Shown: positions 1 through 63,386, counted from the first letter of the stretch. The stretch is 64,000 bases of DNA from a bacterium (GCA_019912885.1 JAIOHV010000149.1:33441-97440), one strand, 5' to 3'. Notes: generated by a model from the letters alone, not told the origin. Numbers and translations are program-made.

Positions 1-2280
1 AGTGACACGGTGTCCGGGCCGGACGACGACGATGCGTTTGACGATGACTACGCCGACGACGATCGATTCGATGACGACAGCGACGACGACAGCGACGACG
101 ATACCGATGATTCCATCTTTCCCTTTACCTGTACTCCGATTTCTGATCCGCAACCGTCGCTCGGAATCTGTTCCTCCTACATGCAAAGAAGCGGGTCGCC
201 ATTTCCGGGGGAGCATTGCGCCATCGCCGCGCGGAGTGGAAGCGATCTGGGCGCGGAAATTCAGCAGGCGCCGGACGGTACACTCTATGCGCTCGTAAAT
301 AGCGGCGGCGAGCTCCGTCTATATGAAATTGAGTCTGAAACGAAATCCGCGGCACCCGGCGCCTTCGAACCTCGCAAGTTCGAAATTCTTGCGTCGAACG
401 TCGTCGTCGCCCGCTTTGCGATAAGCGACAACGGTTTGTTTCATGTCGTTTACAGCGGCGCCGCACGCGAATTGAAGTATGCCGTCGGTTGTTTTGGCGG
501 CCAATGGGACACATTCGAGATATCCAAAAACGGGCCCGTTTACCAATACAATTTGGCGATCGCGGTAGGACGCGATGGCATTCCGCACATCGCTTGGCAG
601 AGCAGTAGCGGCTTCGATCTTCGGTACGCAACCCCGACTCCGCCTGATTTCGATTCCTGGCCAGTCGAAGTTCTGAGGGATTTCCAAGGGTGGTCGCCAT
701 TTTTTGCAGCGTTCGCGGGAGTCCATATCGACATCGCCATTAACGCTGGTGGCGACGTTCACATCGCATCTTTGTCGGACTTCGGTTTTTGGGTAAACCT
801 GGAACACCTTTCGAAATCAGATGCGAACTGGACGAACGAAACGATCGATTTCGGGGCGATCTCTCATCCGAAAATGCTGCTCGGAGACAAACAAGGAGAG
901 ATCGCGCTCGTCTACGTATCGGGTTGGGGCGCTTCGGACGCAAGAAGCTGGATCGCTGTATTTCAAAATGGAACGTGGCGCCGTTTCGGTATCGACCGCT
1001 TTTTTTACGACCGCGATCTCGACAATATCGGCACGGCTGAGTGGGGAAGCGCTACGGCCGCCATCGCCTACCTGGACGAACAGTCCGGGGCGCAGCTGGG
1101 TTCGCGACTTTGGAAAACGGAATTTGGTCCCTCGGGCAAAGCAAAGACGTTAGTTCGCGAATGGCCGGTCGGAACGGATCCGAACTTTCTTTTTTATGCG
1201 GGCGATCTCTCGGGCGACTGGGCGGTGAGCTACTTCGAGTGGATCGAAGGGCCGATGTTGTTGCGTTCCACGGGCTCGGGAACGTCGGTGAACTCGTTGA
1301 CCGATCAGCCGTTCTACCAAACCATTGATTTTGCTTTCGGTCCGTCGGGCGAGATCATGCTCGCGGCCGTCGCGGGTGACGACACGATTCGATATATCGG
1401 CAATCCGAACGACGAATGGATCGGCCAGATCGTCGGATACGCCGATTCAACGCAGCTTGATCGAATCTCGATTGCGGCGGACCAAGGCGGAAATGCACAC
1501 ATCGTATACAGGGACGGGGAGCACCTCGTCTATTCGACAAATTCCTCAGGTGACTGGCAAGGCGAATCCATTAATTCGTCTCTCGAACACCCGGTCGCGT
1601 CGCAAGGCTTCGTCGCCGTGGACTCGCATGACGAGATCTATGTCGCGTTTTCCGATGATGCCGCCGGCGCCTGGCACATGGCGCATCGACAGGCCGGCAA
1701 CTGGAGCTATGAACCGATCCCGCATGTCGGAACGGGACTCGTCGCGGATTTCGTTTTCGGTCCGGACGACGTCGCGTACATCGCTTACAAACGATACGAT
1801 GACGCAAACTTGGGCTCATATCTCATTGCGAAAACCGGTTCACGGTGGCCGCCGTTGTTCCGCTACCCGAAGGCTTTCGGACGCGCACATCTGGCGACGG
1901 ACGAACATGGGCACATTCATCTCGTCTTCAACGCCGTCACGGCATCGGGTTTCGGCGAACACATGTTTTATGCGTCTAATCGAACCGGCGCCTTCACGCT
2001 TCAGTCTTTCGATAATGCCACTGAGTCTTTTGTCGCGTGGGATTCCAACCGTAGTGTCGCCGTCATCTACCGCGAATGTCTGGACAGACTCGAAATCGAC
2101 GATGCGCTCAACGTCGTCGCCGATTCGGCGCCTTGCCCGTTCCGTTCGACTTATTTTCGCGACGAAATAAACGGGGTCGCCGTCGACTCCACCGGCACTC
2201 AGCACGTGATCGTCGGGGGGCCTGCTGGAGAAGCGCCCGGAATCGGGTATGTCCGCGTGTATCCCCCGACGGCGCCGTGA
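1..2280 (+). CDS. Exported beta-propeller-like repeat protein with N-terminal poly-Asp (DDDxx)n region; 5' partial, open to window start
   Basis: Reading frame is open from nt 1 (SDTVSGPDDDDAFDDDYADDDRFDDDSDDDSDDDTDD...). It is followed by about 12 repeated ~45-aa units with recurring Y/H-[IV]-[AV]-[WY]-x-x-x-G motifs typical of propeller blades. No catalytic motif recognised. Confidence 0.5.
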   Translation, partial: SDTVSGPDDDDAFDDDYADDDRFDDDSDDDSDDDTDDSIFPFTCTPISDPQPSLGICSSYMQRSGSPFPGEHCAIAARSGSDLGAEIQQAPDGTLYALVNSGGELRLYEIESETKSAAPGAFEPRKFEILASNVVVARFAISDNGLFHVVYSGAARELKYAVGCFGGQWDTFEISKNGPVYQYNLAIAVGRDGIPHIAWQSSSGFDLRYATPTPPDFDSWPVEVLRDFQGWSPFFAAFAGVHIDIAINAGGDVHIASLSDFGFWVNLEHLSKSDANWTNETIDFGAISHPKMLLGDKQGEIALVYVSGWGASDARSWIAVFQNGTWRRFGIDRFFYDRDLDNIGTAEWGSATAAIAYLDEQSGAQLGSRLWKTEFGPSGKAKTLVREWPVGTDPNFLFYAGDLSGDWAVSYFEWIEGPMLLRSTGSGTSVNSLTDQPFYQTIDFAFGPSGEIMLAAVAGDDTIRYIGNPNDEWIGQIVGYADSTQLDRISIAADQGGNAHIVYRDGEHLVYSTNSSGDWQGESINSSLEHPVASQGFVAVDSHDEIYVAFSDDAAGAWHMAHRQAGNWSYEPIPHVGTGLVADFVFGPDDVAYIAYKRYDDANLGSYLIAKTGSRWPPLFRYPKAFGRAHLATDEHGHIHLVFNAVTASGFGEHMFYASNRTGAFTLQSFDNATESFVAWDSNRSVAVIYRECLDRLEIDDALNVVADSAPCPFRSTYFRDEINGVAVDSTGTQHVIVGGPAGEAPGIGYVRVYPPTAP

Positions 2281-13156: not shown

Positions 13157-15190
13157 TCAGCATCCGCAGCCGCTGTCGTTATCATCGTCGTCGCCGAAAT
13201 CATCGTCGTCGTCCGCGATATCGTCATCCGGGTCGTCGTCCGCGCCGGGCTCGAGAACGATGACCGCGACGCTCGAGGATGCGCTACCGCGCGGTCCGGT
13301 TGCCGTCAGCGTCGCGACGTATTCGCCGGGCTGGTCGTATATGTGCATCGTGTTTTGTTCGTCGCTTGTCGAGGCGTCACCGAAATCCCATTCAAAGCCG
13401 GTAAGACACGCCGCGTCCACGACGATGTGCCCGGTGAACGAAACGGACAGCGGCGCCACGCCGTTACGCGGATCGGCTTCGGCGTGAACGCCGGGCGCCA
13501 GGCAATGTTCGGCCAGCACGACCGCGTCGATATCCGCGCCGGGGCTCTCGCCGGCGATGCGATCTCCGTTGTCGCGGATCAGCACGTATCGGAAACCGGA
13601 CTTGAGAACTGGCGTAAAATTCGACGTCCCCGTGCCGTTTCCGAGCGACGTGAACGGGCTGTCGCGATTGGGCGAGGCGAGGACCTCGTAGTCGTCCGCG
13701 CCATCGGATTCGTCCTCGAAGACGGTCAGATCGATCTCGGGCGAAGTGGAGAGGCTCTCACCGAGATCGAGCATCAGCGCGCCGCCGCCGCCGATCGAAT
13801 ACGAACGCCCGTCCGGAAGAAACAGCGCATCGTGCGGCAGCGTCGTGTTGTCGAAATCGGCGAAGGGCCGGTTCATGTCCGTCATCATCACGCGGATCGC
13901 CGATCGCTCCGGCTCATGCTCTTGTGCCGGCAACGCAATTTCCAGGTCGTCCACCGGGCCGCTTGCGGTGTCGATCGAGAGCACGCGGCTCGCGTGCCCG
14001 TTCGCATGAACGAATACGCGATGTTCGCCCGGCCCGACGACGCGCGCGAACGTGCCGGCCTGGGCGGAGCTGTACGCCGGCCACAGGCCGTCCACCACGA
14101 GGACCGCCTCGAGCGGATCGCCTTTTGCGTCCGTGACGCGGCCGCGAATTCCCTCGCCCGAGCTTCGGATCGCGTCGAGCATCGCGGCGATGTTGCGATC
14201 GATATAACCGGGGATCTTCGCGGCCGCGGGGTTTTTCGGCACGGAGAGCTCGAGAATCACCGACAGCGCGCCACCGGCCTCGTAGCTTGTTTCCTCCGAG
14301 ATTCCGTTGACCATGTACCAGTCGTAACCGTTGATGATCGGATAACCCGACAACTCCGAATAGCGATCGGACATGGCGATCAACAACGCCTCGTCGGGCG
14401 TGGGTTGCGGCGTCGAATCGAACGGGTAGTTCACGACCTCGGCGCCCGAATGAAGCTGCATCGCGATCGCGGGCGCGGTTTCGATGTAATACGCCGACAG
14501 CGCGCGCGTCTCGCTTTCGCTCAAGGCGGTGTCCGAGCCGCCGGCCGGCACGTGGTTGATCGCGAAGTTGCGGTTGAGATCGACGCCGTTTCCGTTGGCG
14601 CGACGGTGCGCCGCATGGCCGTCCGGGTTCGCGATCGGGATGACGCGCACATCGAATGCGTCGAGGATCGCATCGGCTTCCGCGCTACCGGACACGAGCT
14701 CGCCAACGAGCGCCATCAGCACCTCGGTGCCGATTTTCTCGTCGCCGTGGATCGCGGCATCGAACACGACGCGCGGCCCGTCGCACGGCGCGCGGCAAAG
14801 GCGCGCGGCGAAAATATCGCGGCCAGTCTCGGATGAGCCGATCGCGCCGACGCTGACCGAGTCGGGGTGCGTCGCCGCGAGGTCGAAAAGGGCGTCCACC
14901 ACGTCGTCGTAGCCGTAGTAGCCGGTCGGCGCTTTTGGACTTGCTTTCGATTCGACGGCAAAACCCCACGCGGCAAGCCGGGGAATTTCCGAGGCATCGA
15001 CCGATAACGTCACGACATCGCCGTGCCGCGAAGCGATATCGAACCCCGCATACGCGAGAAAATCGAGCCTCGCGCGATCCGGCACGCGCACGTCGATTTC
15101 CATCGCTTCGGCGCGGGCCGCGCGGGGGATCGCCGCGCAAAGAAAAAACACCGCGATGGCGGCGAATCGTGAAATCGTCTTGCGTCCCAT
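13157..15190 (-). CDS. Secreted M14 zinc carboxypeptidase with PKD domain and C-terminal poly-Asp tail ending in ...GCGC
   Basis: Signal peptide MGRKTISRFAAIAVFFLCAAIPRAARA. M14 motifs HGDE(zinc)...NPDG...NRNF. PKD-like FEWDFGDASTSDEQN...YDQPGEYVATLTATG. C-terminus DDDPDDDIADDDDDFGDDDDNDSGCGC then stop. Start ATG at 15190. Confidence 0.8.
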   Translation of the reverse strand: MGRKTISRFAAIAVFFLCAAIPRAARAEAMEIDVRVPDRARLDFLAYAGFDIASRHGDVVTLSVDASEIPRLAAWGFAVESKASPKAPTGYYGYDDVVDALFDLAATHPDSVSVGAIGSSETGRDIFAARLCRAPCDGPRVVFDAAIHGDEKIGTEVLMALVGELVSGSAEADAILDAFDVRVIPIANPDGHAAHRRANGNGVDLNRNFAINHVPAGGSDTALSESETRALSAYYIETAPAIAMQLHSGAEVVNYPFDSTPQPTPDEALLIAMSDRYSELSGYPIINGYDWYMVNGISEETSYEAGGALSVILELSVPKNPAAAKIPGYIDRNIAAMLDAIRSSGEGIRGRVTDAKGDPLEAVLVVDGLWPAYSSAQAGTFARVVGPGEHRVFVHANGHASRVLSIDTASGPVDDLEIALPAQEHEPERSAIRVMMTDMNRPFADFDNTTLPHDALFLPDGRSYSIGGGGALMLDLGESLSTSPEIDLTVFEDESDGADDYEVLASPNRDSPFTSLGNGTGTSNFTPVLKSGFRYVLIRDNGDRIAGESPGADIDAVVLAEHCLAPGVHAEADPRNGVAPLSVSFTGHIVVDAACLTGFEWDFGDASTSDEQNTMHIYDQPGEYVATLTATGPRGSASSSVAVIVLEPGADDDPDDDIADDDDDFGDDDDNDSGCGC

Positions 15191-18797: not shown

Positions 18798-18801
18798 GCG
18801 T

Positions 18802-33197: not shown

Positions 33198-33246
33198 GGA
33201 ATTTTGCAAGTTTAAGTACCGGAGATATTGCGAGAGGATTTCGCGA

Positions 33247-33654
33247 TTGGACACGCTGTCATTGAAAGAGCGCTCGGAACGCATGGCGCGTGTGCGTGCC
33301 AAGGATACGAAACCGGAAATGCTCGTCCGAAGTCTTGCGCACTCTCTTGGATATCGATACCGTCTCCATGCTCGCGATTTGCCTGGATGTCCTGATCTGG
33401 TTTTCAGACGACGACGAAAAGTTATTTTCGTAAACGGTTGCTTTTGGCATCGCCACGCTCGTTGCGCTCTAGCGCGATTGCCGAAATCCCGACGTGAGTT
33501 TTGGGTGCCCAAGCTCGAAGCCAACAAAGCACGCGACAGGCGTATTAGACGCGCTCTTCAAAGAAACGGTTGGAAGGTATTGACGATTTGGGAATGTCAG
33601 ATTAAGGACATTGAGAAGCTGAGCCGAAATTTACGGAGATTCCTCGATGCGTAG
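33247..33654 (+). CDS. vsr: Very-short-patch-repair (Vsr) endonuclease
   Basis: RSERMARVRAKDTKPE...GCPDLVFRRRRKVIFVNGCFWHRH...GWKVLTIWEC are Vsr family motifs. Start is ambiguous (TTG 33247 or ATG 33283) and lies 50 bp from the IS right end. Overlaps the MTase gene by 8 nt. Confidence 0.8.
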   Translation: MDTLSLKERSERMARVRAKDTKPEMLVRSLAHSLGYRYRLHARDLPGCPDLVFRRRRKVIFVNGCFWHRHARCALARLPKSRREFWVPKLEANKARDRRIRRALQRNGWKVLTIWECQIKDIEKLSRNLRRFLDA

Positions 33655-34825: not shown

Positions 34826-34833
34826 CGCCTAAA

Positions 34834-35664
34834 ATGTCACGCGAAATTGAAAACATAGCTGCGCAGCTTCGGGACCTTTCGGAACGGCTCGCTGCGGAAG
34901 AAACCACGAGCCTAACCGCGCCGCGCGCCCGTAAAGCTCGCAGGACGATTGCCGCAGCTTATGAAAAAATCCGCATTGTTCTAGACGATCTCGATCCCAT
35001 TAAGCACCCCGGGTACGTATTCAAACCATCGAATCCGGAGGTTGCTGGACGAATTATTGGAGTCGCATTGATCGCTCAACCACGCAAACCCATGGAGGCG
35101 ATCGCGAGATTTTACGGATCCGGTGTCTATGCTCTTTATTATCGCGGTAATTTTCATGCGTATAAACGAATTTCAGGAATGGAACATCCCATTTATATTG
35201 GAAAGGCAGACCCTGCTAAACCAAACAGTGAAACAGCGCTTGAACAGGGTGATCGCCTTGCGAGGCGACTTAAAGAACATAGTAAAAATCTTGTGAAAGT
35301 GAGTACGACGCTCAATCTGAACGATTTCGAATATCGCGCCCTAGTGGTGCAAACTGGCTATCAATCGGCTGCGGAAGAGTATTTGATCAATCTTTTTAAG
35401 CCCATTTGGAATAAAGAGATCGAAATATGTTACGGCTTTGGTAAACACGGGGACTCTCCGGATACGCGCGCAAATTTACGTTCTCCTTGGGACACGCTCC
35501 ACCCCGGACGCGAATGGGCTCACCGAGATCCGAACATGAAGGATGCTCGTTTGCAATCAACTTTGATACAAGCGATTGCGGCACATTTCGCGAAATATCC
35601 ACCGCTGCGGTCGGTTGACGAAATTCTGCGAAGATTTCTCGATGAAATGCGCGAGATTTCTTAG
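34834..35664 (+). CDS. GIY-YIG family type II restriction endonuclease (Eco29kI/NgoMIII-like)
   Basis: GVYALYYRGNFHAYKRISGMEHPIYIGKA...R...EH is a GIY-(x10-11)-YIG core with downstream Arg/Glu. Lies immediately 3' of the C5-MTase, 8-nt gap, same low GC. Confidence 0.6.
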   Translation: MSREIENIAAQLRDLSERLAAEETTSLTAPRARKARRTIAAAYEKIRIVLDDLDPIKHPGYVFKPSNPEVAGRIIGVALIAQPRKPMEAIARFYGSGVYALYYRGNFHAYKRISGMEHPIYIGKADPAKPNSETALEQGDRLARRLKEHSKNLVKVSTTLNLNDFEYRALVVQTGYQSAAEEYLINLFKPIWNKEIEICYGFGKHGDSPDTRANLRSPWDTLHPGREWAHRDPNMKDARLQSTLIQAIAAHFAKYPPLRSVDEILRRFLDEMREIS

Positions 35665-35836: not shown

Positions 35837-36919
35837 ATGCGTGTTAATCGGCTGTCGATGTTGGCGCTATGCGTAGCCTTGTTTGCTTGCTCGCTGGGCT
35901 GCGGTTGCGGATGCGGCGATGACGACGACGATTCCTCCGGCGATGACGCGGACGACGACGCAGGCGACGACGATTCGGGCGATGACGATGACAATGCGGG
36001 CGATGACGACGACGCGACGGATGACGATGCGGACGACGACGCTACGCCGGTATTTACATCAATCCCCTCCGGTTCGTTCACCATGGGAAGCCCCGTTTCC
36101 GAAGCGGGACGATACGACAACGAGACGCAACACACCGTGACGCTGACGCGGGGATTCGAGATCGCCGTTCACGAAACGACGCAGGACGAATACGCGGCGC
36201 TGATGACCTGGAATCCGAGCAAGTTCGGTCCCGAATGGCCGTACGACGAATATCCGGAATGCGGGGGCGATTGTCCGGTCGAAAACGTGAGCTGGTTCGA
36301 TGCCCTGTCTTACGCGAACGAGCTTTCGGAGCAGGCCGGTTACGATCCGTGTTTTCTCATCGGCGAAATCGCGTGCGCGGATGGTTCGCTCGTCGGCTCA
36401 AACGCCGCAAGTTGCCGCAACCAGGTTCAGCGTGGCATCGCTGACGCGCAGGTCACTCTGCACGCAGTGACGTCGGTCTACGATTGCGAAGGCTATCGCC
36501 TGCCGACGGAGGCCGAGTGGGAGTACGCGGCGCGGGCGGGCGCCCTTTCGGCCTATCACGACGGCACGGACAGCGACGGAACGCACCTTCTATGCGAGAC
36601 GCCGTTCCCCCTGACGGATATCGCCTGGTATTGCGCGAACGGGAACGACACGACGCACCCCGTCGCGAGCAACACGCCTAACGCCTGGGGGCTGTTCGAC
36701 ACGAGTGGCAACGTCTTTGAATGGACGTGGGACTGGTTCGGCGACTACCCCGGTTCGGTGATCGATCCGGAAGGCGGATGGCCCGCAAACGACAGGGTCA
36801 GCCGCGGAGGTCATTTCGGCGCGGATGCCGCGGCCGTACGTTCCGCGTATCGCGGTGGCATCGGTCCAGGGGCGCAGGATCGTTTTCAGGGATTTCGTCT
36901 CGTTCGAACCGAGCCCTGA
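35837..36919 (+). CDS. Lipoprotein with poly-Asp linker and FGE-sulfatase (SUMF1/formylglycine-generating-enzyme family) domain
   Basis: Signal peptide plus lipobox MRVNRLSMLALCVALFACSLGCGCGCGDDDDDSSGDDADDDAGDDDSGDDDDNAGDDDDATDDDADDDA. Then FTMGSPVSEAGRYDNETQHTVTLTRGFEI...HETTQDEY...NVFEWTWDW of the FGE-sulfatase fold. RBS GGAGGAG upstream. Confidence 0.75.
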   Translation: MRVNRLSMLALCVALFACSLGCGCGCGDDDDDSSGDDADDDAGDDDSGDDDDNAGDDDDATDDDADDDATPVFTSIPSGSFTMGSPVSEAGRYDNETQHTVTLTRGFEIAVHETTQDEYAALMTWNPSKFGPEWPYDEYPECGGDCPVENVSWFDALSYANELSEQAGYDPCFLIGEIACADGSLVGSNAASCRNQVQRGIADAQVTLHAVTSVYDCEGYRLPTEAEWEYAARAGALSAYHDGTDSDGTHLLCETPFPLTDIAWYCANGNDTTHPVASNTPNAWGLFDTSGNVFEWTWDWFGDYPGSVIDPEGGWPANDRVSRGGHFGADAAAVRSAYRGGIGPGAQDRFQGFRLVRTEP

Positions 36920-42783: not shown

Positions 42784-44391
42784 ATGAAAAAACTTTCTCC
42801 CGAATCGATCGACGCGATCAAAAAGAGCTGGCCGGCCGCGCTTGGCGGATTGGCCTATTTGCTCGCGTTTCCGACGTTCAATCTCTGGCCGCTCGCGTTT
42901 ATCGCCATCGCGCCGACCATCGGTCTCGTGGACCGCGCGGCGACGAACAAGCGGGCGTTCTGGTTCGCCTTCGTCGGCGGATTCGTCGCGAACGCCGGCA
43001 AGCTCTACTGGCTCGTCTACACGATCAACCATTACGGCCACTTCCCGCTGCCTGCCGCGCTGCTTGTCTTCGGGCTGTTATGCGCGACACTTGGCTCGTT
43101 CTGGGGCGGCGCGTTTGTCGCGGGCCGCTTTCTGGTCCGATCCGGCAACGTGCCACGCTTCGCCGCGTATGCCCTGGCGTGGATGTTCCACGAGTGGTGG
43201 CTGACCTGGTTCCTGACGGGTTTTCCATGGGAGCTGCTCGGCCACGTTTTCATCGCCGCGCTCCCGTTCGCACAGATCGCGGACGTTTTCGGCGGTATCG
43301 CGCTTTCGTTCCCCGTCATCTTCGGAAACGCGCTCGCCTACGAAATCTGGCGCGCGTGGAAAGGCGAGCGTGCCTGGCCGATCGCCCAGGCGGGCGTGCT
43401 TGCCGCCATGCTGGCGATCATGGCGGGATACGGCTTTTGGCGCATGCCGCAAATCGATCGCCTGATGGCCAAGGGCGACGTCATTCGCGTCGGCATGTTG
43501 CAGGGCAACACGGACCAGAACGCGAAATGGAACGCCGACTATCGCAACGACATCCTGCGCACCTATCGCGTGCAGGCCACGCAGGTCGTGAGCGAGGGTG
43601 CGGACCTCGTGCTGATGCCGGAAACGGCGCTTCCGAACTGGCAGGAGCAGGGCCGCCGCTTCCGAAGCCCCCTGAGGCGCTTTCTCAAGGACCTCGATAC
43701 GCACCTGCTTCTCGCGGTGCCGACGCGCGTGGAGAATCCGGAGGACCGCGACTGGCCGTACAAATACAACTCGACGGTCCTTGTCGGTCCGGACGGCGAG
43801 ATCGCCAGCGATTGGTACAACAAACACCGGCTCGTGCCATTCGGCGAGTACCTACCGCTGAAAAAGCTGTCCGTTCCGCTTGTGAAGTGGCTTCGTTCGT
43901 GGAAGGCGCTCGCGGGGCTCCGGCTGTCCGCCGGGTTTTACAAGGGTGAGGAATACATCGTCTTTCCACATCCGAAGGGGCGCTTTGGCCTTGCCATCTG
44001 CTACGAGATCATCTACCCGGGCATCGTCCGCACCATCGCCGGGATGGACACCGCGTTCATGGCGACGATCACGAACGACGCGTGGTTCGGCGATACGACC
44101 GCGCCGCACCAGCATTGGGCGCAGGTGCAAATGCGCGCCATCGAGACGCGCCGCTGGTTCGCGCGCTCGGCGAATACGGGCATCTCCGGCATCGTGGACG
44201 CTAACGGCCGCACCATTTCGCAGACCCCGACCTACGTCGCCACGACGCACATCGGCGAGGTGACGACGATGGACACGATTTCGCCGTATTTGCGGATCGG
44301 GGACGCGTTCCTGTATCTTTGCGTGGCGATATTTTTCGCGCTGTTCGTCAAGACCTTACTGGGCTCGCGCCGAGCCCCCCGGAGCGCATAA
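42784..44391 (+). CDS. lnt: Apolipoprotein N-acyltransferase
   Basis: N-terminal polytopic membrane domain plus C-terminal nitrilase-like CN-hydrolase domain (LVLMPETA...GLAICYEIIYP...NDAWFG). 535 aa. Confidence 0.85.
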   Translation: MKKLSPESIDAIKKSWPAALGGLAYLLAFPTFNLWPLAFIAIAPTIGLVDRAATNKRAFWFAFVGGFVANAGKLYWLVYTINHYGHFPLPAALLVFGLLCATLGSFWGGAFVAGRFLVRSGNVPRFAAYALAWMFHEWWLTWFLTGFPWELLGHVFIAALPFAQIADVFGGIALSFPVIFGNALAYEIWRAWKGERAWPIAQAGVLAAMLAIMAGYGFWRMPQIDRLMAKGDVIRVGMLQGNTDQNAKWNADYRNDILRTYRVQATQVVSEGADLVLMPETALPNWQEQGRRFRSPLRRFLKDLDTHLLLAVPTRVENPEDRDWPYKYNSTVLVGPDGEIASDWYNKHRLVPFGEYLPLKKLSVPLVKWLRSWKALAGLRLSAGFYKGEEYIVFPHPKGRFGLAICYEIIYPGIVRTIAGMDTAFMATITNDAWFGDTTAPHQHWAQVQMRAIETRRWFARSANTGISGIVDANGRTISQTPTYVATTHIGEVTTMDTISPYLRIGDAFLYLCVAIFFALFVKTLLGSRRAPRSA

Positions 44392-45544
44392 ATGGAATAC
44401 GAAACCCGCGAACGCCTGGACGACCTGACCCGCCGCATCGAAGACATCCGGGGGTATCTTTGACGTCGCGGCGCTGACCCGCGAGTTGGAGGACATCGAC
44501 AAGCGAACGCTCGTCGAAGGGTTCTGGCAAGACGTAACGACCGCCAACCAGGTCATGAAACGCAAAAAGGAAGTCGAAGGTTCGCTCAAGCGCGCCGAGA
44601 CGCTTGTCGCGAAGCTCGACGACGTGCGCACCGCATTCGAACTCATCGAGGAGGCGCCCGACCGCGAATTGGCCAGGGAAGCCGAGTCGAGCCTGAACGC
44701 GCTTGAGACCGCGGTCACCGACGCCGAGATCGCCATGCTCTTCGACGAGCCGGCCGACAGCTCGGATGCGATCTGTGAAATCAACGCGGGCGCCGGCGGC
44801 ACCGAGGCGCAGGATTGGGCGTCGATGCTCCTTCGCATGTACACGCGCTGGGCGGAGCAGCGCGGGTTCGCGGTCGAGATGTTCGACACGCAGCCCGGCG
44901 AAGAGGCCGGCATCAAATCGGCCACGTTCAACATTCGCGGTCCGAACGCCTACGGTTTGCTGAAAGCGGAGGCGGGCGTGCATCGCCTGGTGCGTATCAG
45001 CCCGTTTGACGCCAACGCGCGCCGTCACACGAGCTTCGCGAGCTTTTTCGTCTTCCCCGATATCGAGGAAGACATCGACATCGAGATCGAGGACAAGGAC
45101 CTTCGGATCGACACGTTCCGCGCGTCGGGCGCGGGCGGCCAGCACGTCAACAAGACCTCGTCGGCCATCCGCATCACGCACTTCCCGACGGGCATCGTCG
45201 TGCAGTGCCAGAACGAACGCAGCCAGCACAAGAACAAGGCGTTCGCGATGAAGGTGCTGAAAGCGCGCCTGTATCAACTCGAGGAGCAGAAGCGCCAGGC
45301 GGAGCGCGCCAAACTTGCGTCCGACAAGATGGAGATTGGCTTTGGCAGCCAGATTCGCTCGTACGTGCTGCAACCGTATCGCCTGGCCAAGGACCACCGC
45401 ACCAACCGCGAAATCGGCGACGTGACAAGCGTACTCGACGGACGGCTCGACGAGTTCATCTACGAATATCTGATGTCGCGCAAGAAGGGCTCATCGACGC
45501 CCGCGCCTCCGACGAAAAACGGGGCGGAAGCACGCCCCTCGTAA
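44392..45544 (+). CDS. prfB: Peptide chain release factor 2, with programmed +1 ribosomal frameshift at codon 24 (CTT TGA C, nt 44458-44464)
   Basis: ORF0 MEYETRERLDDLTRRIEDIRGYL-stop; internal SD-like GGGGG then CTT TGA C. The +1 frame continues DVAALTRELEDIDKRTL... with SPF and GGQ motifs (RASGAGGQHVNKT). Confidence 0.9.
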
Positions 45545-45567: not shown

Positions 45568-47292
45568 TTAGCAAGCCCCACTTGATTGCGGCACCAGGAT
45601 GAGCGCGTCGCCGCTGTTCATCCACACGGTCGCCGGCGCGGCGGAAGCGTCGCCGTTAGCATCAAGCGCGCACCAACCGCTTCCGACGCTGTAATCCACG
45701 CCGCCGCGCTGGCCGTCCATGCGCACGACCACCTCGGCGGTCGTGCCGTGCAGGCCCTCGAAGCGCCGGCGGAAGATGCCGTCGTGCTGCTCCCACGCCG
45801 GGCCGGCCGGTTCGCCGATATTCTTTTCGAAGATCCCGAACCACACCGAGTCCTTCAGCGGCTCGTACGGATTCCACGCGGGTTTGATGACGAATACATC
45901 GCGGCCGTTGCGGAACATGTAATACGCGGCGAGATAAAACATCAGCTCGTCAGCGTCCGGGTTCGAACTGCCGCCGTTATAGAACGTCTCGAGCGCGAGG
46001 AAGCTGCCCTCGGCCGCGAGCTTCTCCGACGTGTCGATGATTGAACGCATGCGATCCGGCGTGTTGAGATTACCCCAGTCCGGGTGATGCAACGCCGACT
46101 CGCACCACGGGCCGACGTCCTTGCTCGCCAGGTCCGCGACCATATCGACCGAGCCGTCCCACGAGCAATACGCGCCGCTGTTGAAGACGAAGCGCGCCTC
46201 GGAGTGCGTCTTTTGGACTTCGAATCGGATGTGGGCCATCAGGTCGCGCACGCCGCCAAGCCACCAGTCGTTCATCTTGTCCCAGTTCGCCTCGACATCG
46301 TTTGGGATCTCCAGGACGTCATTCGGCGTCAGGAAGTTCGGCAGGTAATAGCTGTCCTCTTCCTCGATCGGGCCGCCGATGTTGTCGTAGCCGACACCGC
46401 CGAAGCCTTCGACCTCCACGGCGCGTTTTGCGCGCCACGCGTTGTAATCCTTGCCGCAGCCGCTGGTGATGTCGATGAGCCAGACGTATTCGTCCCAGAC
46501 GAGCGTCTTGATGCGCGCGTCCGTCATGGTCGCGGCGCTGCCCTGGTAACCCTTTTGCCAGAGCTCCACCCAGCATCCGTGTGCGTGCCAGCGCGCCTCG
46601 ATCAGGCCGTCGTTTTTCGCATGGAGAAAACAGCTCTCGCCGTCTCCGTGCTGCGGGTAGGCGTTTAGAAATTCGCCGAACTCCGCCACGCGCGCGTCGA
46701 ACGTCTGGTCCTTCTCGCCGATGATGGGATCGGCGCAGCTTCCGCTGCTCTCGTTCGTAAGGAACAAATGCGCGAGGTCCCACTTGAGCCAGGACCCCTG
46801 GGGATTCGCGTTACGCAGCGCTTCCCAGGCCATCTCGGTGCCTTCGTCGTTGTAATTGATGATGGCCAGATCGACGTTCTCGGCCGCCCAGGCGGTGTCT
46901 TCCTGGAAGATTTCGCCTTCGTAGCCGCCGAGGTCGTAGTAGTAGTGGAAATGCACGATGCCGTAGTTCAGGGCGTCGGCGTTTTCCTCCCAGGGCGGAA
47001 TCACGTCGTCATCGTCGTCGCCGAAATCGTCGTCATCCGGGACATCGTCGTCATCGCCGCTGTCGTCGTCATCGCCGGCATCGTCATCGTTTCCCTGCGA
47101 AGCGTCATCGTCTCCGGAGGTGGTGTCGTCATCCGCGGGGGAATCGTGGCCGGGGTCAACGCCGGCGGAATCGTTTCCCGATCCGTCGGAGCCCCGTGAC
47201 GCGGACGATTCCTCTCCGGAAAAGCAGCTGGTTGTTGCGAGGAGAAAAACGGCAAGAAGCGCGACGGGGACGAACAAGGACAGGCGTTGCAT
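45568..47292 (-). CDS. Lipoprotein with ~60-aa poly-Asp linker and C-terminal hydrolase-like (possible TIM-barrel glycoside-hydrolase-like) domain
   Basis: MQRLSLFVPVALLAVFLLATTSC lipobox, then DDDTTSGDDDASQGNDDDAGDDDDSGDDDDVPDDDDFGDDDDD, then a ~470-aa domain without a confident family match. Confidence 0.5.
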   Translation of the reverse strand: MQRLSLFVPVALLAVFLLATTSCFSGEESSASRGSDGSGNDSAGVDPGHDSPADDDTTSGDDDASQGNDDDAGDDDDSGDDDDVPDDDDFGDDDDDVIPPWEENADALNYGIVHFHYYYDLGGYEGEIFQEDTAWAAENVDLAIINYNDEGTEMAWEALRNANPQGSWLKWDLAHLFLTNESSGSCADPIIGEKDQTFDARVAEFGEFLNAYPQHGDGESCFLHAKNDGLIEARWHAHGCWVELWQKGYQGSAATMTDARIKTLVWDEYVWLIDITSGCGKDYNAWRAKRAVEVEGFGGVGYDNIGGPIEEEDSYYLPNFLTPNDVLEIPNDVEANWDKMNDWWLGGVRDLMAHIRFEVQKTHSEARFVFNSGAYCSWDGSVDMVADLASKDVGPWCESALHHPDWGNLNTPDRMRSIIDTSEKLAAEGSFLALETFYNGGSSNPDADELMFYLAAYYMFRNGRDVFVIKPAWNPYEPLKDSVWFGIFEKNIGEPAGPAWEQHDGIFRRRFEGLHGTTAEVVVRMDGQRGGVDYSVGSGWCALDANGDASAAPATVWMNSGDALILVPQSSGAC

Positions 47293-47646
47293 GGGCTTCC
47301 TTCGTGCCGGGATCAAACACCGCGCGTCGCTCGCGGCCCTGCGCCCGCAGGTTGGGATTCCAATCTATTCTAATTAGCGATTCTCGCCCCGAAGGGCAAA
47401 CAAGCCAACATAGCATAAATCGACATCGCGCGCGAAATATTTAGCGGAATTCGGCGAATTTGCGTTAGCAGGGGGGCATATTTATGCCGCGATCGCAGTA
47501 CGAGTCCTTTTCGAAACGTTATACCGGGCCGCCGAATCGTACATTCCTACCGGGATGATACTTTCTCCCGCCGGCCGGATCGGCTGCGATTGCGCGCCTT
47601 CGGCGGCGCGCCTATATTCAGGTTCGCCACAAAATGGAGTTCGGTT

Positions 47647-48846
47647 ATGCACAGGCCGGCCGGTTTTGCCGTCGTTTTTCTGCTCCTGGCGTTCGTGACG
47701 ACGGCGTTCACCGCCGGCTGCACTTGCGGCGATGACGACGATGACGGCAGTGGATCGCCGCCCGACGACGACGCTCTCAATGACGATGCGACGGATGACG
47801 ATACGGGCGATGACGATTCCCTGGACGACGATTCGATGGACGACGATGCGGCTGACGACGACACGGTGGACGACGACGCCGGGGATGACGATTCCCTGGA
47901 CGACGACATGACGGACGACGATACGGCTGACGACGATTCGGCTGACGATGACATCGCCGATGACGATACGGGCGACGACGACACCCTGGATGACGACACG
48001 GCGGACGACGATACCGGCGACGACGACACGTCGGACGACGATACCGGCGACGACGACATCGCCGACACGACAATCACGATCATGACGATGAACCTGCAGA
48101 CGCCGTTTCTGAACTTCGCCGATCCCGACGATCGCCTGCAAATGGTCGCCGATGTCATCAATGACCGGCAGCCGGATTTCGTCGGCGTGCAGGAAGCCGC
48201 GGAACTTTTATTCGTGCCGAACCGGGCGCCGGAACTCGCGGCGCTCACCGGCTACGACTACATTTATAAGGAAACGCACAACTTCCCGCTGCTGTTCAAG
48301 GAAGGCATCGCGATCTTTTCGCGCTGGCCGATCCTTTGGGATCAGGACCAATGGCTGCCGCACCCGGAATTCCTGACGGTTCTGCGCCGCGCCGTCCTCG
48401 GCGTTCGCGCCGACACGCCCTGGGGCGAGATGTATTTTTACGACTCGCATTTCACGATCGATGACCGCGACGTCATCAAGGCCGATCAGGCGCTGACCGC
48501 GTTCGAATTCATCGAGCAATACCCGTCGCCGATCCCGTCGTTTTTCGCCGGCGATCTCAATTGCGAGCCCGACCGCCTGGCGATGGAATTCCTGCGCGGC
48601 GAGACGATTTATCAGGGGCGGTACGGCAACTTCGTCGATGCGTGGCTCGAACTGTATCCGCATGACGTGGGCTACACCTATCCCGCGGACGACCCGGAAA
48701 AGCGCATCGATTACGTGTACGCGATTCCGGGCAATCTCGGCGAAGCCGTTGCGATGGAATGCGAACACGTACTCGACGCGCCCGACGCGGGGCTATGGGC
48801 TTCCGACCACATCGGCGTGATCTGCGAATTCGAGTGGGCGCCGTAG
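47647..48846 (+). CDS. Lipoprotein with ~110-aa (DDDxx)n poly-Asp linker and endonuclease/exonuclease/phosphatase (EEP) family domain
   Basis: MHRPAGFAVVFLLLAFVTTAFTAGCTCGDDDDD, then ~20 tandem DDDxx units, then EEP motifs (TIMTMNLQ...FVGVQEA...DHIGV). Confidence 0.7.
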   Translation: MHRPAGFAVVFLLLAFVTTAFTAGCTCGDDDDDGSGSPPDDDALNDDATDDDTGDDDSLDDDSMDDDAADDDTVDDDAGDDDSLDDDMTDDDTADDDSADDDIADDDTGDDDTLDDDTADDDTGDDDTSDDDTGDDDIADTTITIMTMNLQTPFLNFADPDDRLQMVADVINDRQPDFVGVQEAAELLFVPNRAPELAALTGYDYIYKETHNFPLLFKEGIAIFSRWPILWDQDQWLPHPEFLTVLRRAVLGVRADTPWGEMYFYDSHFTIDDRDVIKADQALTAFEFIEQYPSPIPSFFAGDLNCEPDRLAMEFLRGETIYQGRYGNFVDAWLELYPHDVGYTYPADDPEKRIDYVYAIPGNLGEAVAMECEHVLDAPDAGLWASDHIGVICEFEWAP

Positions 48847-48853
48847 GCTTCTT

Positions 48854-49627
48854 TCAAGAAGCTTGCCGCTCGACATCCGCGCGCGCGGCCTGCGCCGGCG
48901 CGAACAAGGGATCGCGCCGCAAGCCCCATCGGTGGGCGAAGTATCGCGCGAGCGTCCAAAGCGTCTCGAGGCCGTAGCGCATTGACCGGCGGAAATTGAT
49001 GCTTGACGCCTCGGCCATGTAACGCACCGGCACGGGGATCTCCGCGATGCGGAATCCGTGGTGCACCGCTTGCACCAGGAACTGCGTGTCGAAGACGAAA
49101 TCGTCGGAGTTATTCAGCCAGTCGATCGTCTCCAACACCTTGCGCGAGTAGCAGCGATAACCCGTGTGGTATTCGCCGAGGTTTTGCCCCAGCGCCACGT
49201 TTTCGGCGATCGTGAGGAACCGGTTCGACACGTATTTGTAAACCGGCATGCCGCCCTCAAGCGCCTCGCGCCGCGTGCGGATGCGGCTTCCGAGCATGAT
49301 GTCGAAATAGCCGTCGGCCACGAAGCGGATCATGTGCGGCGCGAGCGCCGAATCGTACTGGTAATCCGGGTGGATCATGATGACGACATCCGCGCCGGCG
49401 TCGAGCGCGGCCCGGTAGCACGTCTTCTGGTTGCCGCCGTATCCGACGTTTTTTTCGTGCACGATGACCGTCAGGCCCAACTCGCGCGCGATCTTTACCG
49501 TGTCGTCGGAACTGGCGTCGTCGACGAGGATGATTTCGTCGGCCGTGCCCGGGGGAATGTCGCTCACCGTGCGGGCGAGCGTCGCCGCCGCGTTGTACGC
49601 CGGCATGACGACGACGGCGCGCGGCAA
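48854..49627 (-). CDS. Family 2 glycosyltransferase (polyprenyl-phosphate sugar transferase/DPM-synthase-like)
   Basis: [13 protein letters not shown]...[11 protein letters not shown]...GSR. Start ambiguous: TTG 49627, GTG 49651 or ATG 49606. The listed ORF is N-extended into the upstream gene. Confidence 0.65.
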
Positions 49628-49629
49628 CG

Positions 49630-50037
49630 TCAGGCCTTGAGCGTCGCGGACGCGTTCTTGATGACCTCGGCGCCGTCGGGCGTAACGCAAACAAAAGACG
49701 TCACGGCTTCGCCGCCGCGGACCGATTCGACGCGGGCGCGCGTGGTGACGTCATCGCCGATGCGGACCGGGCGCGAGAAACGCACCTTGATTTTTTTCAG
49801 CGCGCGCGGATCGCCGCCGGCCGCGTCGATATGCGCGCTCGCGGCGAACGCCATCGTGCAAAGCCCTTGCAGGATCGCGCCGCCAAGGCCCACCATCCTT
49901 GCGAACTCGTCGTCGATGTGGATCGGATTGAAATCACCCGACGCGCCGCCGTAGTAAATCGCCTGGTATTTACCGACGGACTGCGTCGCCTCGAAGGTGT
50001 CCCCCACAGCGAGTTTCGTTTTTTCCACCATCGTCAT
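49630..50037 (-). CDS. MaoC-like (R)-specific enoyl-CoA hydratase, hotdog fold
   Basis: [20 protein letters not shown]...G is the MaoC dehydratase active-site motif. 135 aa. Confidence 0.75.
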
Positions 50038-63293: not shown

Positions 63294-63386
63294 GTGATCC
63301 AGGGATCGGGCGCGAAGTCATCCACGGGTCGGGCGCAAGTCATCCAGGGATCGGGCGCTTCGTCATCCTGAGCGAAGCGAAGGATC
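63294..63386. repeat. Three imperfect direct repeats of ~22-23 bp (GTSATCCAGGGATCGGGCGC...), then a degenerate fourth copy forming a 7-bp-stem hairpin CGCTTCG-n11-CGAAGCG
   Basis: Seen directly. Copies at 63294-63316, 63317-63338 and 63339-63361; hairpin at 63355-63379. Located in the convergent rel/rpmB intergenic region. Confidence 0.45.

Follow-up and report, generated by a model that had tools for sequence, protein, structure and literature searches.

Lipoprotein sorting in E. coli depends on long disordered N-terminal linkers, segments of more than 22 residues whose sequence is exchangeable provided that they stay equally long and disordered (El Rayes et al., 10.1101/2021.01.05.425367). 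Short acidic motifs beside the anchor cysteine have also been described. The lipoprotein export signal (LES) reads C-X-K-(D/E)2-X in Capnocytophaga and C-SDDDD in B. fragilis, and SDDDD behind the Cys+1 is functional as such a signal (Lauber et al. 2016, PMC5080379), and G/D-rich P2'-P4' motifs mark type II secretion system-dependent lipoproteins, with GDD a Lol-avoidance signal in Pseudomonas (PMC12802150). At the opposite end of the chain, MYXO-CTERM features "a generic GCGC motif" and is paired with the myxosortase MrtX (TIGR03901; Guo, Haft and Wall 2025, PMC11980579).

In the bacterial lineage studied here, many predicted exported enzymes are joined to a terminal Cys motif by a patterned Asp string, at either end of the protein, and no description of this module was found in the searchable literature. 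Like Gram-negative lipoprotein tethers, the module is a predicted disordered segment between the Cys and a folded domain, and its linkers are swapped among orthologs; unlike E. coli tethers, it is 50-70% Asp, has a five-residue period, reaches up to 100-200 residues and has a C-terminal mirror form. To our knowledge, no E. coli linker has such a composition, period, length or mirror form. The start of the module resembles that of the Bacteroidota LES, with a small polar residue at +2 and then an acidic run (C-G-DDDDD here, C-S-DDDD there), but the labels of the carriers are not Bacteroidota, the block is absent in about 40% of carriers, and an LES comprises 4-5 residues without the 100-residue Asp repeat that stands behind it in the module. 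G/D-rich P2'-P4' positions after the lipobox Cys are likewise shared with type II-dependent lipoproteins, whose known motif is short.

The window, the whole 64,000-nucleotide stretch of DNA that was analysed, holds five ORFs with (DDDxx)n tracts (p1 to p5), and on re-reading both ORFs and tracts lay where the earlier note had placed them. The pattern (GAY)3-N6-(GAY)3-N6-(GAY)3 matched 19 times in the window vs 0 times in 100 shuffles. Measured tract lengths are 20, at least 30, 41, 43 and 109 residues, rather than the 40 to 110 first reported, and the strict periodicity originally claimed is true of p5 only, in which perfect pentads make up 17 of 20 junctions; in the other four tracts the counts are 2/3, 3/6, 3/7 and 4/6. 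The five proteins had been described as a paralogous family, but their domains are unrelated and their common part is the low-complexity module only, which recurs in the lineage on unrelated proteins numbering in the hundreds. What stands from that description is modularity, the element being attached to exported proteins whose catalytic domains are unrelated.

In p5 (47647-48846, plus strand; ...FTAGCTCG-DDDDD...), the signal peptide and lipobox (aa 1-28, 47647..47730) end in ...FTAG-C25-T-C27-G, and the lipobox T-A-G-C agrees with the logo from 185 related proteins. The Asp stalk that follows (aa 29-137, 47731..48057) is made up of a D5 block, a GSGSPP spacer and about 20 DDDxx pentads; it is 59% Asp and was modelled by AF2 without secondary structure (pLDDT ~47-59). 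The remaining domain (48058..48846, including the stop codon) was modelled at pLDDT >90, scored 46.6 bits (4.5e-12) against Pfam PF03372 (Exo_endo_phos; cutoff 24.5) and had 4ruw, TDP2 and CNOT6L as its best Foldseek matches (E ~1e-17 for 4ruw and TDP2), and by HMM score and predicted fold p5 is a putative phosphodiesterase of the EEP superfamily. TRF detected a 15/30/45/75-nt tandem structure in p5, with units that match each other at 71-79%. In distant p5 orthologs, also lipoproteins, the linker is DG-, GS- or E-rich.

A Cys-Gly-extended lipobox directly before the tract had been claimed for three proteins; of the five, only p5 and p3 show it. In p3 (35837-36919, plus strand; ...FACSLGCGCGCG-DDDDD...), the signal peptide and extended lipobox (35837..35917) read ...ALFA-C18-SLG-C22-G-C24-G-C26-G, the lipobox being either L-F-A-C or S-L-G-C, and the Asp tract (aa 28-68, 35918..36040) leads into an FGE-sulfatase-fold domain (36041..36919; Pfam PF03781, 2.3e-42). 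p4 (45568-47292, minus strand) departs from the Cys-Gly form: its signal peptide ends in an atypical lipobox, T-T-S-C (MQRLSLFVPVALLAVFLLATTS-C23; 47224..47292), there is no C-x-C, and a 30-residue Ser/Gly-rich spacer (aa 24-53, 47134-47223) precedes the Asp tract (aa 54-96, 47005..47133), with residues 18-106 modelled by AF2 at pLDDT <50. A charged n-region and a hydrophobic h-region with the lipobox Cys at its end were seen in p3, p4 and p5, as called by eye and a simple hydrophobicity rule, the procedure used for all signal peptides and lipoboxes here; on these features the three are predicted bacterial lipoproteins that would follow the Lgt/Lsp/Lnt pathway.

An N-terminal signal peptide and Cys recur in 15 of 15 members of the p4 family, whereas the Asp segment ranges from ~5 to ~100 residues among orthologs and is Thr-rich there in two of them (P0128 and P0132). 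The catalytic part (45568..47004), hydrolase-like in the earlier note, had no match in Pfam or NCBIfam and represents a small unannotated family of which only 15 homologs were found. Its AF2 model is good and, with Foldseek, suggests a GH-like (beta/alpha)8 barrel plus a C-terminal beta-sandwich. Best matches were GH168 endo-1,3-fucanases and PbFucA, then GH66 and GH13; the similarity to GH168 is one of fold alone (E 5e-11, target-normalised TM 0.6, 12-14% identity). One p4 ortholog adjoins two sulfatases.

The spacer between the divergent p4 and p5 (47293..47646) had been regarded as an AT-rich control region serving both genes. Its 56% G+C (lowest 100-bp stretch 46%; window 63.5%) is ordinary for an intergenic region, no sigma-70-like site or Rfam match was found in it, and the p4/p5 pairing is absent from three related genomes; co-regulation of the pair is not supported. 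At the window edge, p1 (1..2280, plus strand), whose N-terminus lies upstream, carries its Asp tract at aa 8-37 (nt 22-111) ahead of a 720-residue repeat protein. It had been called a beta-propeller, a label for which p1 gave no Pfam or PDB match. It contains internal repeats and is weakly similar to Asp-linker lipoproteins of 750-870 residues. The window also encodes Lnt (apolipoprotein N-acyltransferase; 42784..44391, plus strand; Pfam LNT_N 8e-29, CN_hydrolase 2e-28), consistent with a lipoprotein pathway in the organism, and together with a GT9 heptosyltransferase and an O-antigen ligase this gene points to a two-membrane envelope with LPS. Lgt, Lsp, myxosortase, GspN and type II secretion system genes were not seen in the sampled DNA.

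A mirror form of the module, left uninterpreted in the earlier note, consists of a cleavable signal peptide, a C-terminal stalk and an end in ...DDDD-x-GCGC. It is represented in the window by p2 (13157-15190, minus strand), whose ending, ...DDDDNDSGCGC and stop, mirrors the C-G-C-G of the N-terminal form. The p2 body (13241..15190) comprises an ordinary signal peptide of the signal peptidase I type (MGRKTISRFAAIAVFFLCAAIPRAARA-EA, cleaved between AARA and EA) and M14 carboxypeptidase, CarboxypepD_reg and PKD domains by Pfam; the C-terminal Asp tract follows (aa 651-670, DDDPDDDIADDDDDFGDDDD; 13181..13240), and then the tail N-D-S-G-C-G-C and a TGA stop (13157..13180). Nothing hydrophobic is encoded downstream, the frame past the TGA being hydrophilic, as it is in L012, L014, L044 and L086. 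About 20 further examples of the C-terminal form were found, whose N-termini, where visible, read as ordinary cleavable signal peptides, apart from the ambiguous L033, which may have a lipobox. A Cys lies within the last 5 residues in 10 of 12 C-terminal-tract proteins vs 20 of 184 N-terminal-form proteins (Fisher 9e-8). The tail is kept at 36-40% identity in the M14 orthologs L044 and P0137, the latter being the closest and ending ...GNGCCG, while more distant M14 homologs have a T9SS C-terminal domain, dockerin or FlgD-Ig in its place.

This form shares with MYXO-CTERM a C-terminal GCGC, a disordered region before it and an ordinary N-terminal signal peptide, and the ...SGCGC end of p2 meets the short MYXO-CTERM signature with its invariant Cys. 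In a Myxococcales MAG, poly-Asp leads straight into a genuine MYXO-CTERM, in the order poly-D, GCGC, membrane helix and RRRR (29 bits on TIGR03901; cutoff 20). Unlike MYXO-CTERM, however, the p2 tail ends at the GCGC, with neither a membrane helix after it nor a terminal Arg-rich cluster, and so would leave nothing for an intramembrane protease to remove. TIGR03901 gave no match at E<=10 to the p2 or the P0057 tail (cutoff 20 bits; the positive control L074 scored 28.6-29.8 bits).

Beyond the window, the tract characterises a lineage made up of uncultured MAGs, of which two bear the label FEN-1099. All carriers are uncultured MAGs or metagenome contigs, and the taxon restriction that had been raised as a possibility is upheld, the tract being confined to certain uncultured lineages. 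Within the window it occurs in 4 of ~10 signal-peptide proteins vs 0 of ~37 others (Fisher 0.0012), both gene counts being approximate, taken from crude ORF calling with N-termini assigned by eye. In related genomes, 4 of 17 genes of L122 and 4 of 11 of L124 carry it; seven of these eight have a lipoprotein signal peptide, and the eighth is an L124 gene of the C-terminal form with an uncertain start. Consistent with a module of exported proteins, as first proposed, the tract was found on none of the cytoplasmic proteins that the sampled DNA encodes. The mature domains of carriers have a pI of 4.2-4.7, compared with 5.5-9.3 for other exported window proteins. Some carriers are TlpA-type thiol-disulfide reductases (P0062, P0110), enzymes that act in the periplasm of known bacteria, which makes a module confined to surface proteins less likely.

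The make-up of the module was profiled in 185 N-terminal-form proteins, the set found through p5 pooled with an exhaustive search. Their lipobox logo is canonical (L/V/A/I at -3, A/V/L/T at -2, G/A/S at -1 and C at +1), followed by G/S/D at +2 and ~60% Asp from +5 to +8. The tract comes after the lipobox Cys in 109 of the 117 Asp-tract proteins found through p5, at a median gap of 3 residues. At least two Asp fall within +2 to +6, where an LES has its polar or basic residue and two or more acidic ones, in 107/185, most commonly as C-G-D-D or C-x-C-G-D-D; C-x-C is present in 34/185 (18%) and C-x-C-G in 30/185, and in ~40% of the N-terminal-form proteins no D4+ block lies 12 residues or less from the Cys. 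Of at least 1403 junctions, 1097 consist of three aspartates and a two-residue spacer. Thr dominates the first spacer position (59%), ahead of Ala (16%) and Ser (11%); the second is most often Ala (26%), Val (20%) or Gly (19%), and Lys, Arg, Glu and Pro are nearly missing from spacers.

Two repeat families were tried as matches and rejected. Pentapeptide-repeat proteins (PF00805) build a right-handed quadrilateral beta-helix from A(D/N)LXX repeats; for this Rfr beta-helix the tracts gave no Pfam hit and no AF2 strands, and their central residue is Asp, not Leu/Phe. RTX proteins carry a GGxGxDxUx nonapeptide and use type I secretion without an N-terminal signal peptide, whereas the tracts have a period of 5, no Gly pattern and N-terminal signal peptides. 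Poly-Asp tracts also occur in eukaryotic proteins that bind minerals or buffer Ca2+, such as calsequestrin, in its tail, and the Asp-rich shell-matrix proteins; these too have a very high Asp content, but are not known to have a terminal Cys anchor or a DDD-T-x pentad; no homology is claimable for low-complexity sequence of this kind.

On balance, we lean toward a lineage-wide envelope-tethering module composed of a terminal Cys anchor, an acidic sorting block and a polyanionic spacer. In the N-terminal form the anchor would be the Cys of the lipoprotein lipobox, often extended to C-x-C-G; in the C-terminal form, whose proteins have ordinary cleavable signal peptides, it would be the chain end ...G-C-G-C-COOH. 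The sorting block would be the 4-8 aspartates adjoining the terminal Cys, and the spacer the DDD-[T/A/S]-[A/V/G/T] pentads, which over 20 to more than 100 residues would link the anchor to an acidic catalytic domain. In this model the Cys would be lipid-modified and hold the protein in the membrane, while the Asp block beside it may direct sorting, whether by Lol avoidance or towards surface export; it cannot be an obligatory signal, since so many carriers do without it and p4 has 30 neutral residues ahead of its tract. Counting against the model, the C-terminal tail has no hydrophobic segment with which to reach a membrane-embedded lipidating enzyme, and the sampled DNA showed none of the type II secretion, myxosortase or Lgt-like genes. 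Nor does the model account for the strictness of the five-residue period or for the preference for Thr, both beyond the needs of a pure spacer.

The tract could alternatively be a plain low-complexity spacer, the flexible linker of this lineage, generated by 15-nt slippage and tolerated as soluble, with incidental Cys motifs. Flexible Pro/Thr- or Gly/Ser-rich linkers are common in secreted multidomain enzymes of other organisms, and the module is, like Pro/Thr/Ser-rich CAZyme linkers, a low-complexity spacer of variable length (two p4 orthologs are Thr-rich there), although it is charged and periodic and adjoins an anchor Cys. Freely varying tract length among orthologs, Thr-rich or DG/GS-rich linkers at the same position, predicted disorder, the tandem structure of p5, Asp codon usage equal to that of the rest of the window (67% GAC) and the lipoproteins of the related genome L125, which manage without Asp linkers, all agree with such a spacer. 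We nonetheless find it unlikely, because spacer residues are restricted (T/A/S, then A/V/G/T) and units within a protein differ. This restriction and the differences between units suggest selection on the pattern rather than recent slippage. A plain spacer also predicts neither a D block beside the Cys in both orientations nor a Cys end on C-terminal tracts, and the cargo domains are co-adapted to acidity.

A cation or mineral tether, as put forward in the earlier note, would have the carboxylates bind Ca2+/Mg2+/Fe or positive mineral or polymer surfaces; the Cys pair would add affinity for soft metals or sulfide minerals, and the enzymes would be held on particles or in a cation-bridged layer. 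Poly-Asp binds Ca2+ and hydroxyapatite, E. coli SlyD has a Cys/Asp/His-rich metal-binding tail ending ...GGCGCH, and the Asp content of the tracts is in line with this role, as are, by name alone, two carrier MAGs with fen or FEN-1099 names. Such a tether is quite improbable, however: nothing computed bears directly on binding, the tract sits between anchor and domain, unlike a free-end binding tag, uncharged Thr- or Gly/Ser-rich linkers substitute for it in orthologs, and it matches neither RTX nor any other Ca2+-binding repeat family. The predatory lifestyle suggested alongside is not supported, nothing in the analysed data bearing on lifestyle. A glycosylated, mucin-like stalk, stiff and protease-proof through O-glycosylation of the first-spacer Thr/Ser in the periplasm, strikes us as very doubtful. 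The Bacteroidota O-glycosylation sequon is D-[S/T]-[A/I/L/V/M/T], and mycobacterial lipoprotein linkers are mannosylated by Pmt. T or S occupies 70% of first spacer positions, and D-[ST]-[AILVMT] fits 46% of pentads, giving 6 sequons per 100 linker residues vs 0.3 elsewhere; a GT-C enzyme of the PMT_2 family (18802-20145) lies beside two GT2 genes, and a Dpm1/GtrB-like GT2 gene adjoins p5. Yet the commonest spacer, TG, is outside the sequon, the spacer positions are not coupled (sequon fit 46% observed vs 48% expected), Ala takes 16% of first positions, GT-C and GT2 genes are common in LPS/glycan loci and prove nothing, and nothing ties the lineage to Bacteroidota or Actinobacteria.

Taken as an envelope-tethering device, the module resembles known lipoprotein tethers and sorting tags and is apparently a variant of them that has not been described. 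Its pentad run would form a disordered, strongly charged and probably protease-resistant spacer that keeps hydrolases off the membrane, and repulsion by the acidic cargo and the cell surface may serve to keep this spacer extended.

Dense Asp tracts lie in exactly five open reading frames in a six-frame scan of the window, and all five had been placed correctly in the earlier note. The repeat protein p1 (1-2280, + strand), whose N-terminus lies upstream of the window, has a tract of at least 30 residues and no Pfam match; p2 (13157-15190, - strand) pairs Pfam M14, CarboxypepD_reg and PKD domains with a C-terminal tract of 20 residues; p3 (35837-36919, + strand) has an FGE-sulfatase domain and 41 tract residues; p4 (45568-47292, - strand) has 43 and no Pfam match; and p5 (47647-48846, + strand) has an Exo_endo_phos domain and 109. 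These lengths replace the 40 to 110 residues given earlier, and the strict DDDxx periodicity described for the linker holds for p5 and for none of the other four. Likewise, the tract had been said to follow a lipobox extended by Cys-Gly directly in three proteins; p3 (...FACSLGCGCGCG) and p5 (...FTAGCTCG) do continue at once with DDDDD, and there is no third. In p4 a T-T-S-C is followed by a 30-residue Ser/Gly spacer ahead of the tract, and p2 has an ordinary signal peptide (...AARA/EA) and a C-terminal tract ending ...DDDDNDSGCGC-stop. At the nucleotide level, (GAY)3N6(GAY)3N6(GAY)3 matches the window 19 times and is absent from 100 dinucleotide-preserving shuffles. Tandem Repeats Finder reports periods of 15, 30, 45 and 75 nt in p5 with matches of just 71-79%, which argues that the units have diverged and are not freshly slipped. 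Asp codon usage in the tracts is not special, with 67% GAC both there and in the rest of the window.

The five cannot be the paralogous family that they had been taken for, as their Pfam domains are unrelated and the tract is common to hundreds of unrelated proteins. The p5 query matched about 30 EEP orthologs, and a further set of about 90 proteins through the N-terminal module alone, that is, the tract following the lipobox Cys. A Pfam domain is absent in about 65 of these 90, and the domains seen among them are LamG, chlorophyllase/PETase-like, metallophosphatase, C25 peptidase, GH5, TlpA-type redoxin and FGE-like. An exhaustive phmmer search of 1.84 billion cluster representatives with the 148-residue module (E<=1e-3) gave 300 matches, and the same N-terminal architecture was present in 76 of 122 new sequences. 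A canonical lipobox logo could be built from 185 pooled proteins of the N-terminal form, with G, S or D at +2, D, C or G at +3 and about 60% Asp from +5 to +8; C-x-C occurs in 34 of the 185, and in 30 of those 34 it is C-x-C-G. Within the tracts, three Asp are followed by two other residues at 1097 of at least 1403 junctions. At the first spacer position T stands in 59%, A in 16%, S in 11% and V in 6%; the second position takes A, V, G, T, S or I, and K, R, E and P are nearly missing. The tract is a lineage-wide module and does not mark a paralogous family.

Scanning the collection for (DDDxx)4DDD yielded at least 120 loci, which give a taxonomic sample and not a census. Among the matches listed, many are unrelated acidic tails from Actinomycetota, Rhodobacterales, Bacillota and others, and the combination of lipobox and tract recurs in a handful of metagenome-assembled genomes (MAGs). 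Two of these have FEN-1099 names ('FR-FEN-1099-1', locus L032, and 'fen_1099', L084), in several the label is 'bacterium', 'Deltaproteobacteria' or 'Myxococcales', and one group, labelled 'uncultured Rickettsiales', has a G-C-P lipobox. One protein of the window genome (locus tags K8I61_) shares 52% identity with the corresponding protein of a FEN-1099-labelled MAG, which makes it plausible that the window belongs to FEN-1099 (Lernaellota). The published description of the FEN-1099 phylum (Lernaellota) makes no mention of an Asp module, the searchable literature held nothing relevant on Asp-rich lipoprotein linkers or on the lineage, and neither the Asp-rich linker nor the helix-free tail of the C-terminal form is described there, in Pfam or in NCBIfam.

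In the DNA sampled, the module is restricted to exported proteins. In a rough tally of the window, made with a crude ORF call, N-termini read by eye and p1 left out, 4 of about 10 signal-peptide proteins carry the tract compared with 0 of about 37 others (Fisher P = 0.0012). The flanks of orthologs in related genomes agree in kind: the tract occurs in 4 of 17 genes at L122 and 4 of 11 at L124, and seven of these eight carriers have a lipoprotein signal peptide, the eighth being a C-terminal-form gene of L124 with an uncertain start. Occurrence in cytoplasmic proteins, which the earlier note had held to count against its reading, was seen neither among the approximately 37 other window proteins nor among the cytoplasmic neighbors in the L122 and L124 flanks. 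A proteome-wide acidity of the salt-in halophile type is ruled out as the source of the tract, since cytoplasmic window proteins have ordinary pI values of 5-10. The tract is frequent but not universal, because a PLD-family lipoprotein with two HKD motifs (25435-26673; signal ...LAASAC/ASVQ) has no Asp linker and L125, from a more distant genome, encodes lipoproteins that lack the tract. Although the Asp module is otherwise in use in its genome, L124 also encodes a small lipoprotein-like ORF (400-1002, ENA ERZ27264001) whose lipobox has three Cys (...LSALAPGCCCLEG...) and which is without an Asp linker. Genes for Lnt, a GT9 heptosyltransferase, an O-antigen ligase and an RfaE-like kinase in the window point to an envelope with two membranes, LPS and triacylated lipoproteins.

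The tract behaves as a linker. In AlphaFold2 (AF2) predictions, p4 residues 18-106 have pLDDT <50 and the p5 tract has pLDDT of about 50 without secondary structure; neither model gives the pentads a beta-helix or any other fold. Tract length spans about 5 to about 100 residues across the 15 p4 orthologs, two of which have long Thr-rich stretches in its place, and the distant orthologs of p5, lipoproteins as well, have low-complexity linkers rich in Asp/Gly, Gly/Ser or Glu. In each of the five proteins the mature domain, too, is strongly acidic (pI 4.2-4.7, net charge -27 to -54, Lys 0.3-2.9%), compared with pI 5.5-9.3 for other exported window proteins; such cargo would fit a design in which neither cargo nor cell surface collapses onto a polyanionic stalk.

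As for the enzymes p4 and p5, the EEP domain of p5 is modeled with pLDDT >90 (AF2, 29 orthologs), Foldseek places it closest to uncharacterised bacterial EEP proteins, TDP2 and CNOT6L, and p5 is a predicted phosphodiesterase of the EEP fold. The p4 family comprises 15 homologs; Pfam and NCBIfam have no model for it, and PDB gave no match by sequence. AF2 predicts that p4 combines a (beta/alpha)8 barrel with a beta-sandwich (pLDDT 78 overall, high in the domain), closest in Foldseek to GH168 endo-1,3-fucanases and PbFucA and then to GH66 and GH13. This GH168-, GH66- and GH13-like barrel makes the earlier label 'hydrolase-like' a reasonable one for p4, whose likeness to GH168 is one of fold. One p4 ortholog, P0125, lies next to and divergent from two sulfatase genes (L125 2924-7863, JGI 3300023207), and these neighbors together with the predicted GH168-like fold hint at degradation of sulfated glycans. 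Both P0125 and P0123 have an additional Cys-rich N-terminal module ahead of a D/N-rich tract. In an alignment of the family (A1), the domain has six invariant Cys besides a terminal one, and most members end in G-x-G-(x)2-3-C with the Cys within the last 1-4 residues (for example ...SSGAC and ...GTGGVTCE; 45571-45600 in the window).

Co-regulation of the divergent p4 and p5 from one AT-rich control region, as had been suggested, finds no support. The spacer is 354 bp of 56% G+C, a sigma-70-like site and an Rfam element were looked for in it and neither was found, and the pairing is absent in L122-L125: EEP orthologs at L122 and L123 have neighbors that differ from those of p5, yet are again Asp-linker lipoproteins, and no EEP gene adjoins the p4 orthologs at L124 and L125.

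Several features lie near these genes or elsewhere in the window. The RF2 gene prfB (44486-45544) shows an ordinary, classical programmed +1 frameshift, its upstream short frame (44392-44480, MEYETRERLDDLTRRIEDIRGYL) ending CTT TGA C (44458) and continuing in the +1 frame. Directly upstream of p3 is a low-G+C island (31894-35664; 0.51-0.59 vs 0.635), probably horizontally acquired, with an ISL3 transposase (31894-33105, - strand), a C5 cytosine DNA methyltransferase (33647-34825) and an Eco29kI-type restriction endonuclease (34714-35664). A 22-nt tandem repeat (63297-63358; 2.7 copies, 87% matches) lies just downstream of a RelA/SpoT-like gene, and a Cys-rich protein is represented at 63801-63998 (- strand) by its C-terminal fragment, which has putative metal-binding repeats of the 'CxDGxDNNCDG' type and ends ...PPGDDDF...

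The p2 arrangement, an ordinary signal peptide with the tract and a Cys motif at the C-terminus, mirrors the N-terminal form. Among 12 proteins with a tract within 30 residues of the C-terminus and no N-terminal form, 10 have a Cys in the last five residues, compared with 20 of 184 N-terminal-form proteins (Fisher P = 9e-8), many of the 20 being explained by the G-x-G-(x)2-3-C ending of the p4 family. Endings include ...DGCGC, ...SSCCGC, ...GGGGCSGC, ...NGNGCGCS, ...GGCGGCGV and ...GNGCCG, and further cases occur at L012, L014 (two genes), L033, L044, L079, L083, L086 and L124; where the N-terminus is visible it is an ordinary cleavable signal peptide without a lipobox, L033 being ambiguous. 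The Asp block stands beside the Cys motif both ways round, as C-G-C-G-DDDDD... and as ...DDDD-x-G-C-G-C. The tail is kept in the M14 orthologs P0137 and L044 (36-40% identity), and M14 homologs further off have a T9SS C-terminal domain, a dockerin or a FlgD-Ig domain in its place. No sorting-domain model in NCBIfam matches the tail (E<=1 to 10). TGA read-through or recoding into a hidden membrane helix is ruled out, the downstream frame being hydrophilic or closed by double stops; since nothing hydrophobic follows, the stop after GCGC is genuine.

A 'generic GCGC' is also the published signature of MYXO-CTERM, a C-terminal sorting tag (TIGR03901) processed by myxosortase, in which a Cys-containing signature, a membrane helix and an Arg cluster follow in that order and the enzyme that lipidates the cysteine is still unknown (Guo, Haft and Wall 2025, PMC11980579). 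The p2 tail shares only the GCGC signature; it lacks the helix and the Arg cluster, falls short of the HMM cutoff and is therefore not a member. Poly-Asp beside a GCGC anchor does occur with the full tag, as L074 (Myxococcales bacterium FL481, QKPP01000185.1) has >55 consecutive Asp followed by ...DEDGCGC, a helix and RARRRR (TIGR03901 29 bits, cutoff 20). Nearly pure Asp runs of >55 directly precede MYXO-CTERM at both L074 and L028, and a second gene in the same MAG has a similar run; no tripartite MYXO-CTERM was found elsewhere in the small sample of lineage DNA. A phmmer match of 261 residues, P0260, has an Asp tract at 163-238 and then ...SPGFELAIIIPVILFLVVLAGVWGRKRN, which looks like a putative PGF-CTERM-type archaeal sorting tag and, if so, would be another Asp-rich stalk beside a C-terminal membrane anchor. 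We entertain, as a doubtful but possible reading, that ...(DDDxx)n-D4-8-x-G-C-G-C-COOH is a new helix-free C-terminal anchoring signal evolutionarily tied to MYXO-CTERM. The protein would be synthesised already in the state expected after cleavage by myxosortase, its Cys would be lipidated or otherwise covalently attached without intramembrane proteolysis, and GCGC-COOH and the N-terminal C-G-C-G-D5 would form a two-orientation system of Cys anchor, Asp block and poly-Asp stalk, through which a large part of the hydrolases that the lineage secretes would be displayed at the cell surface.

For the module as a whole, we lean slightly toward reading its architecture, restriction to exported proteins, linker behavior and mirror symmetry as a Cys anchor with an adjacent acidic sorting block and a polyanionic disordered spacer; the proteins would then be lipidated, sorted through the acidic block and exposed at the surface. 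On the N-terminal side the precedents are resemblances of mechanism. C-G-DDDDD resembles the Bacteroides fragilis lipoprotein export signal C-SDDDD, which works when transplanted (PMC5080379), and the G/D-rich P2'-P4' motif of lipoproteins that need the type II secretion system and GspN, in a study that also cites GDD as the Pseudomonas example of a signal for Lol avoidance (PMC12802150). In Escherichia coli, correct lipoprotein sorting needs long disordered N-terminal linkers (10.1101/2021.01.05.425367). Against the anchor and sorting model stand the roughly 40% of carriers without a block of four or more Asp near the Cys, the TlpA-type periplasmic enzymes among the carriers, a C-terminal tail without a hydrophobic stretch that could bring it to an enzyme in the membrane, and the strict period and Thr preference, which the model leaves unexplained.

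That the tract is a low-complexity spacer without function is unlikely, and the tether to cations or mineral surfaces proposed in the earlier note is, in our estimate, quite unlikely. An O-glycosylated stalk would draw on the 46% of pentads that fit D-[ST]-[AILVMT] and on the GT-C PMT_2 and GT2 genes within the window, but the two sequon positions are uncoupled and the Bacteroidota-type sequon fits in part only; we consider this explanation improbable. The glycosyltransferase genes comprise a group adjoining p2 (15278-20145), with two GT2 genes, a GLF/amine-oxidase-like flavoenzyme and an ArnT/Pmt-like GT-C PMT_2 membrane glycosyltransferase, and a Dpm1/GtrB-like GT2 gene (48854-49690) convergent with p5; they may encode periplasmic glycosylation machinery, and to connect them with the Thr-rich pentads would be speculation. 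Considered on its own, the Cys pair of the C-G-C unit may bind metal or have a redox role.

Finally, the module is best classed with known kinds of element, namely lipoprotein tethers, acidic sorting signals and Cys-based C-terminal tags, but a specialist would be surprised by how regular it is, by its scale and by the mirror symmetry. The GCGC-COOH ending may yet prove to be a new sorting signal, and the helix-free form offers a natural experiment on MYXO-CTERM: genes common to Myxococcota and these MAGs and absent elsewhere would be candidates for lipidation of the MYXO-CTERM Cys. In dark-matter genomes the module also serves as an easily read sequence mark of 'exported, probably anchored' proteins, and a soluble, genetically encoded polyanionic spacer of tunable length could serve engineering. 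Were it a mere linker, it would be a tidy and far less important case of lineage-specific low-complexity usage. If it works as proposed, a whole uncultured lineage would have standardised the mounting of its extracellular hydrolases: peptidases, phosphodiesterases, glycosidase-like enzymes, esterases and C25 proteases alike would be carried by a charged stalk, anchored via a terminal cysteine at either chain end.
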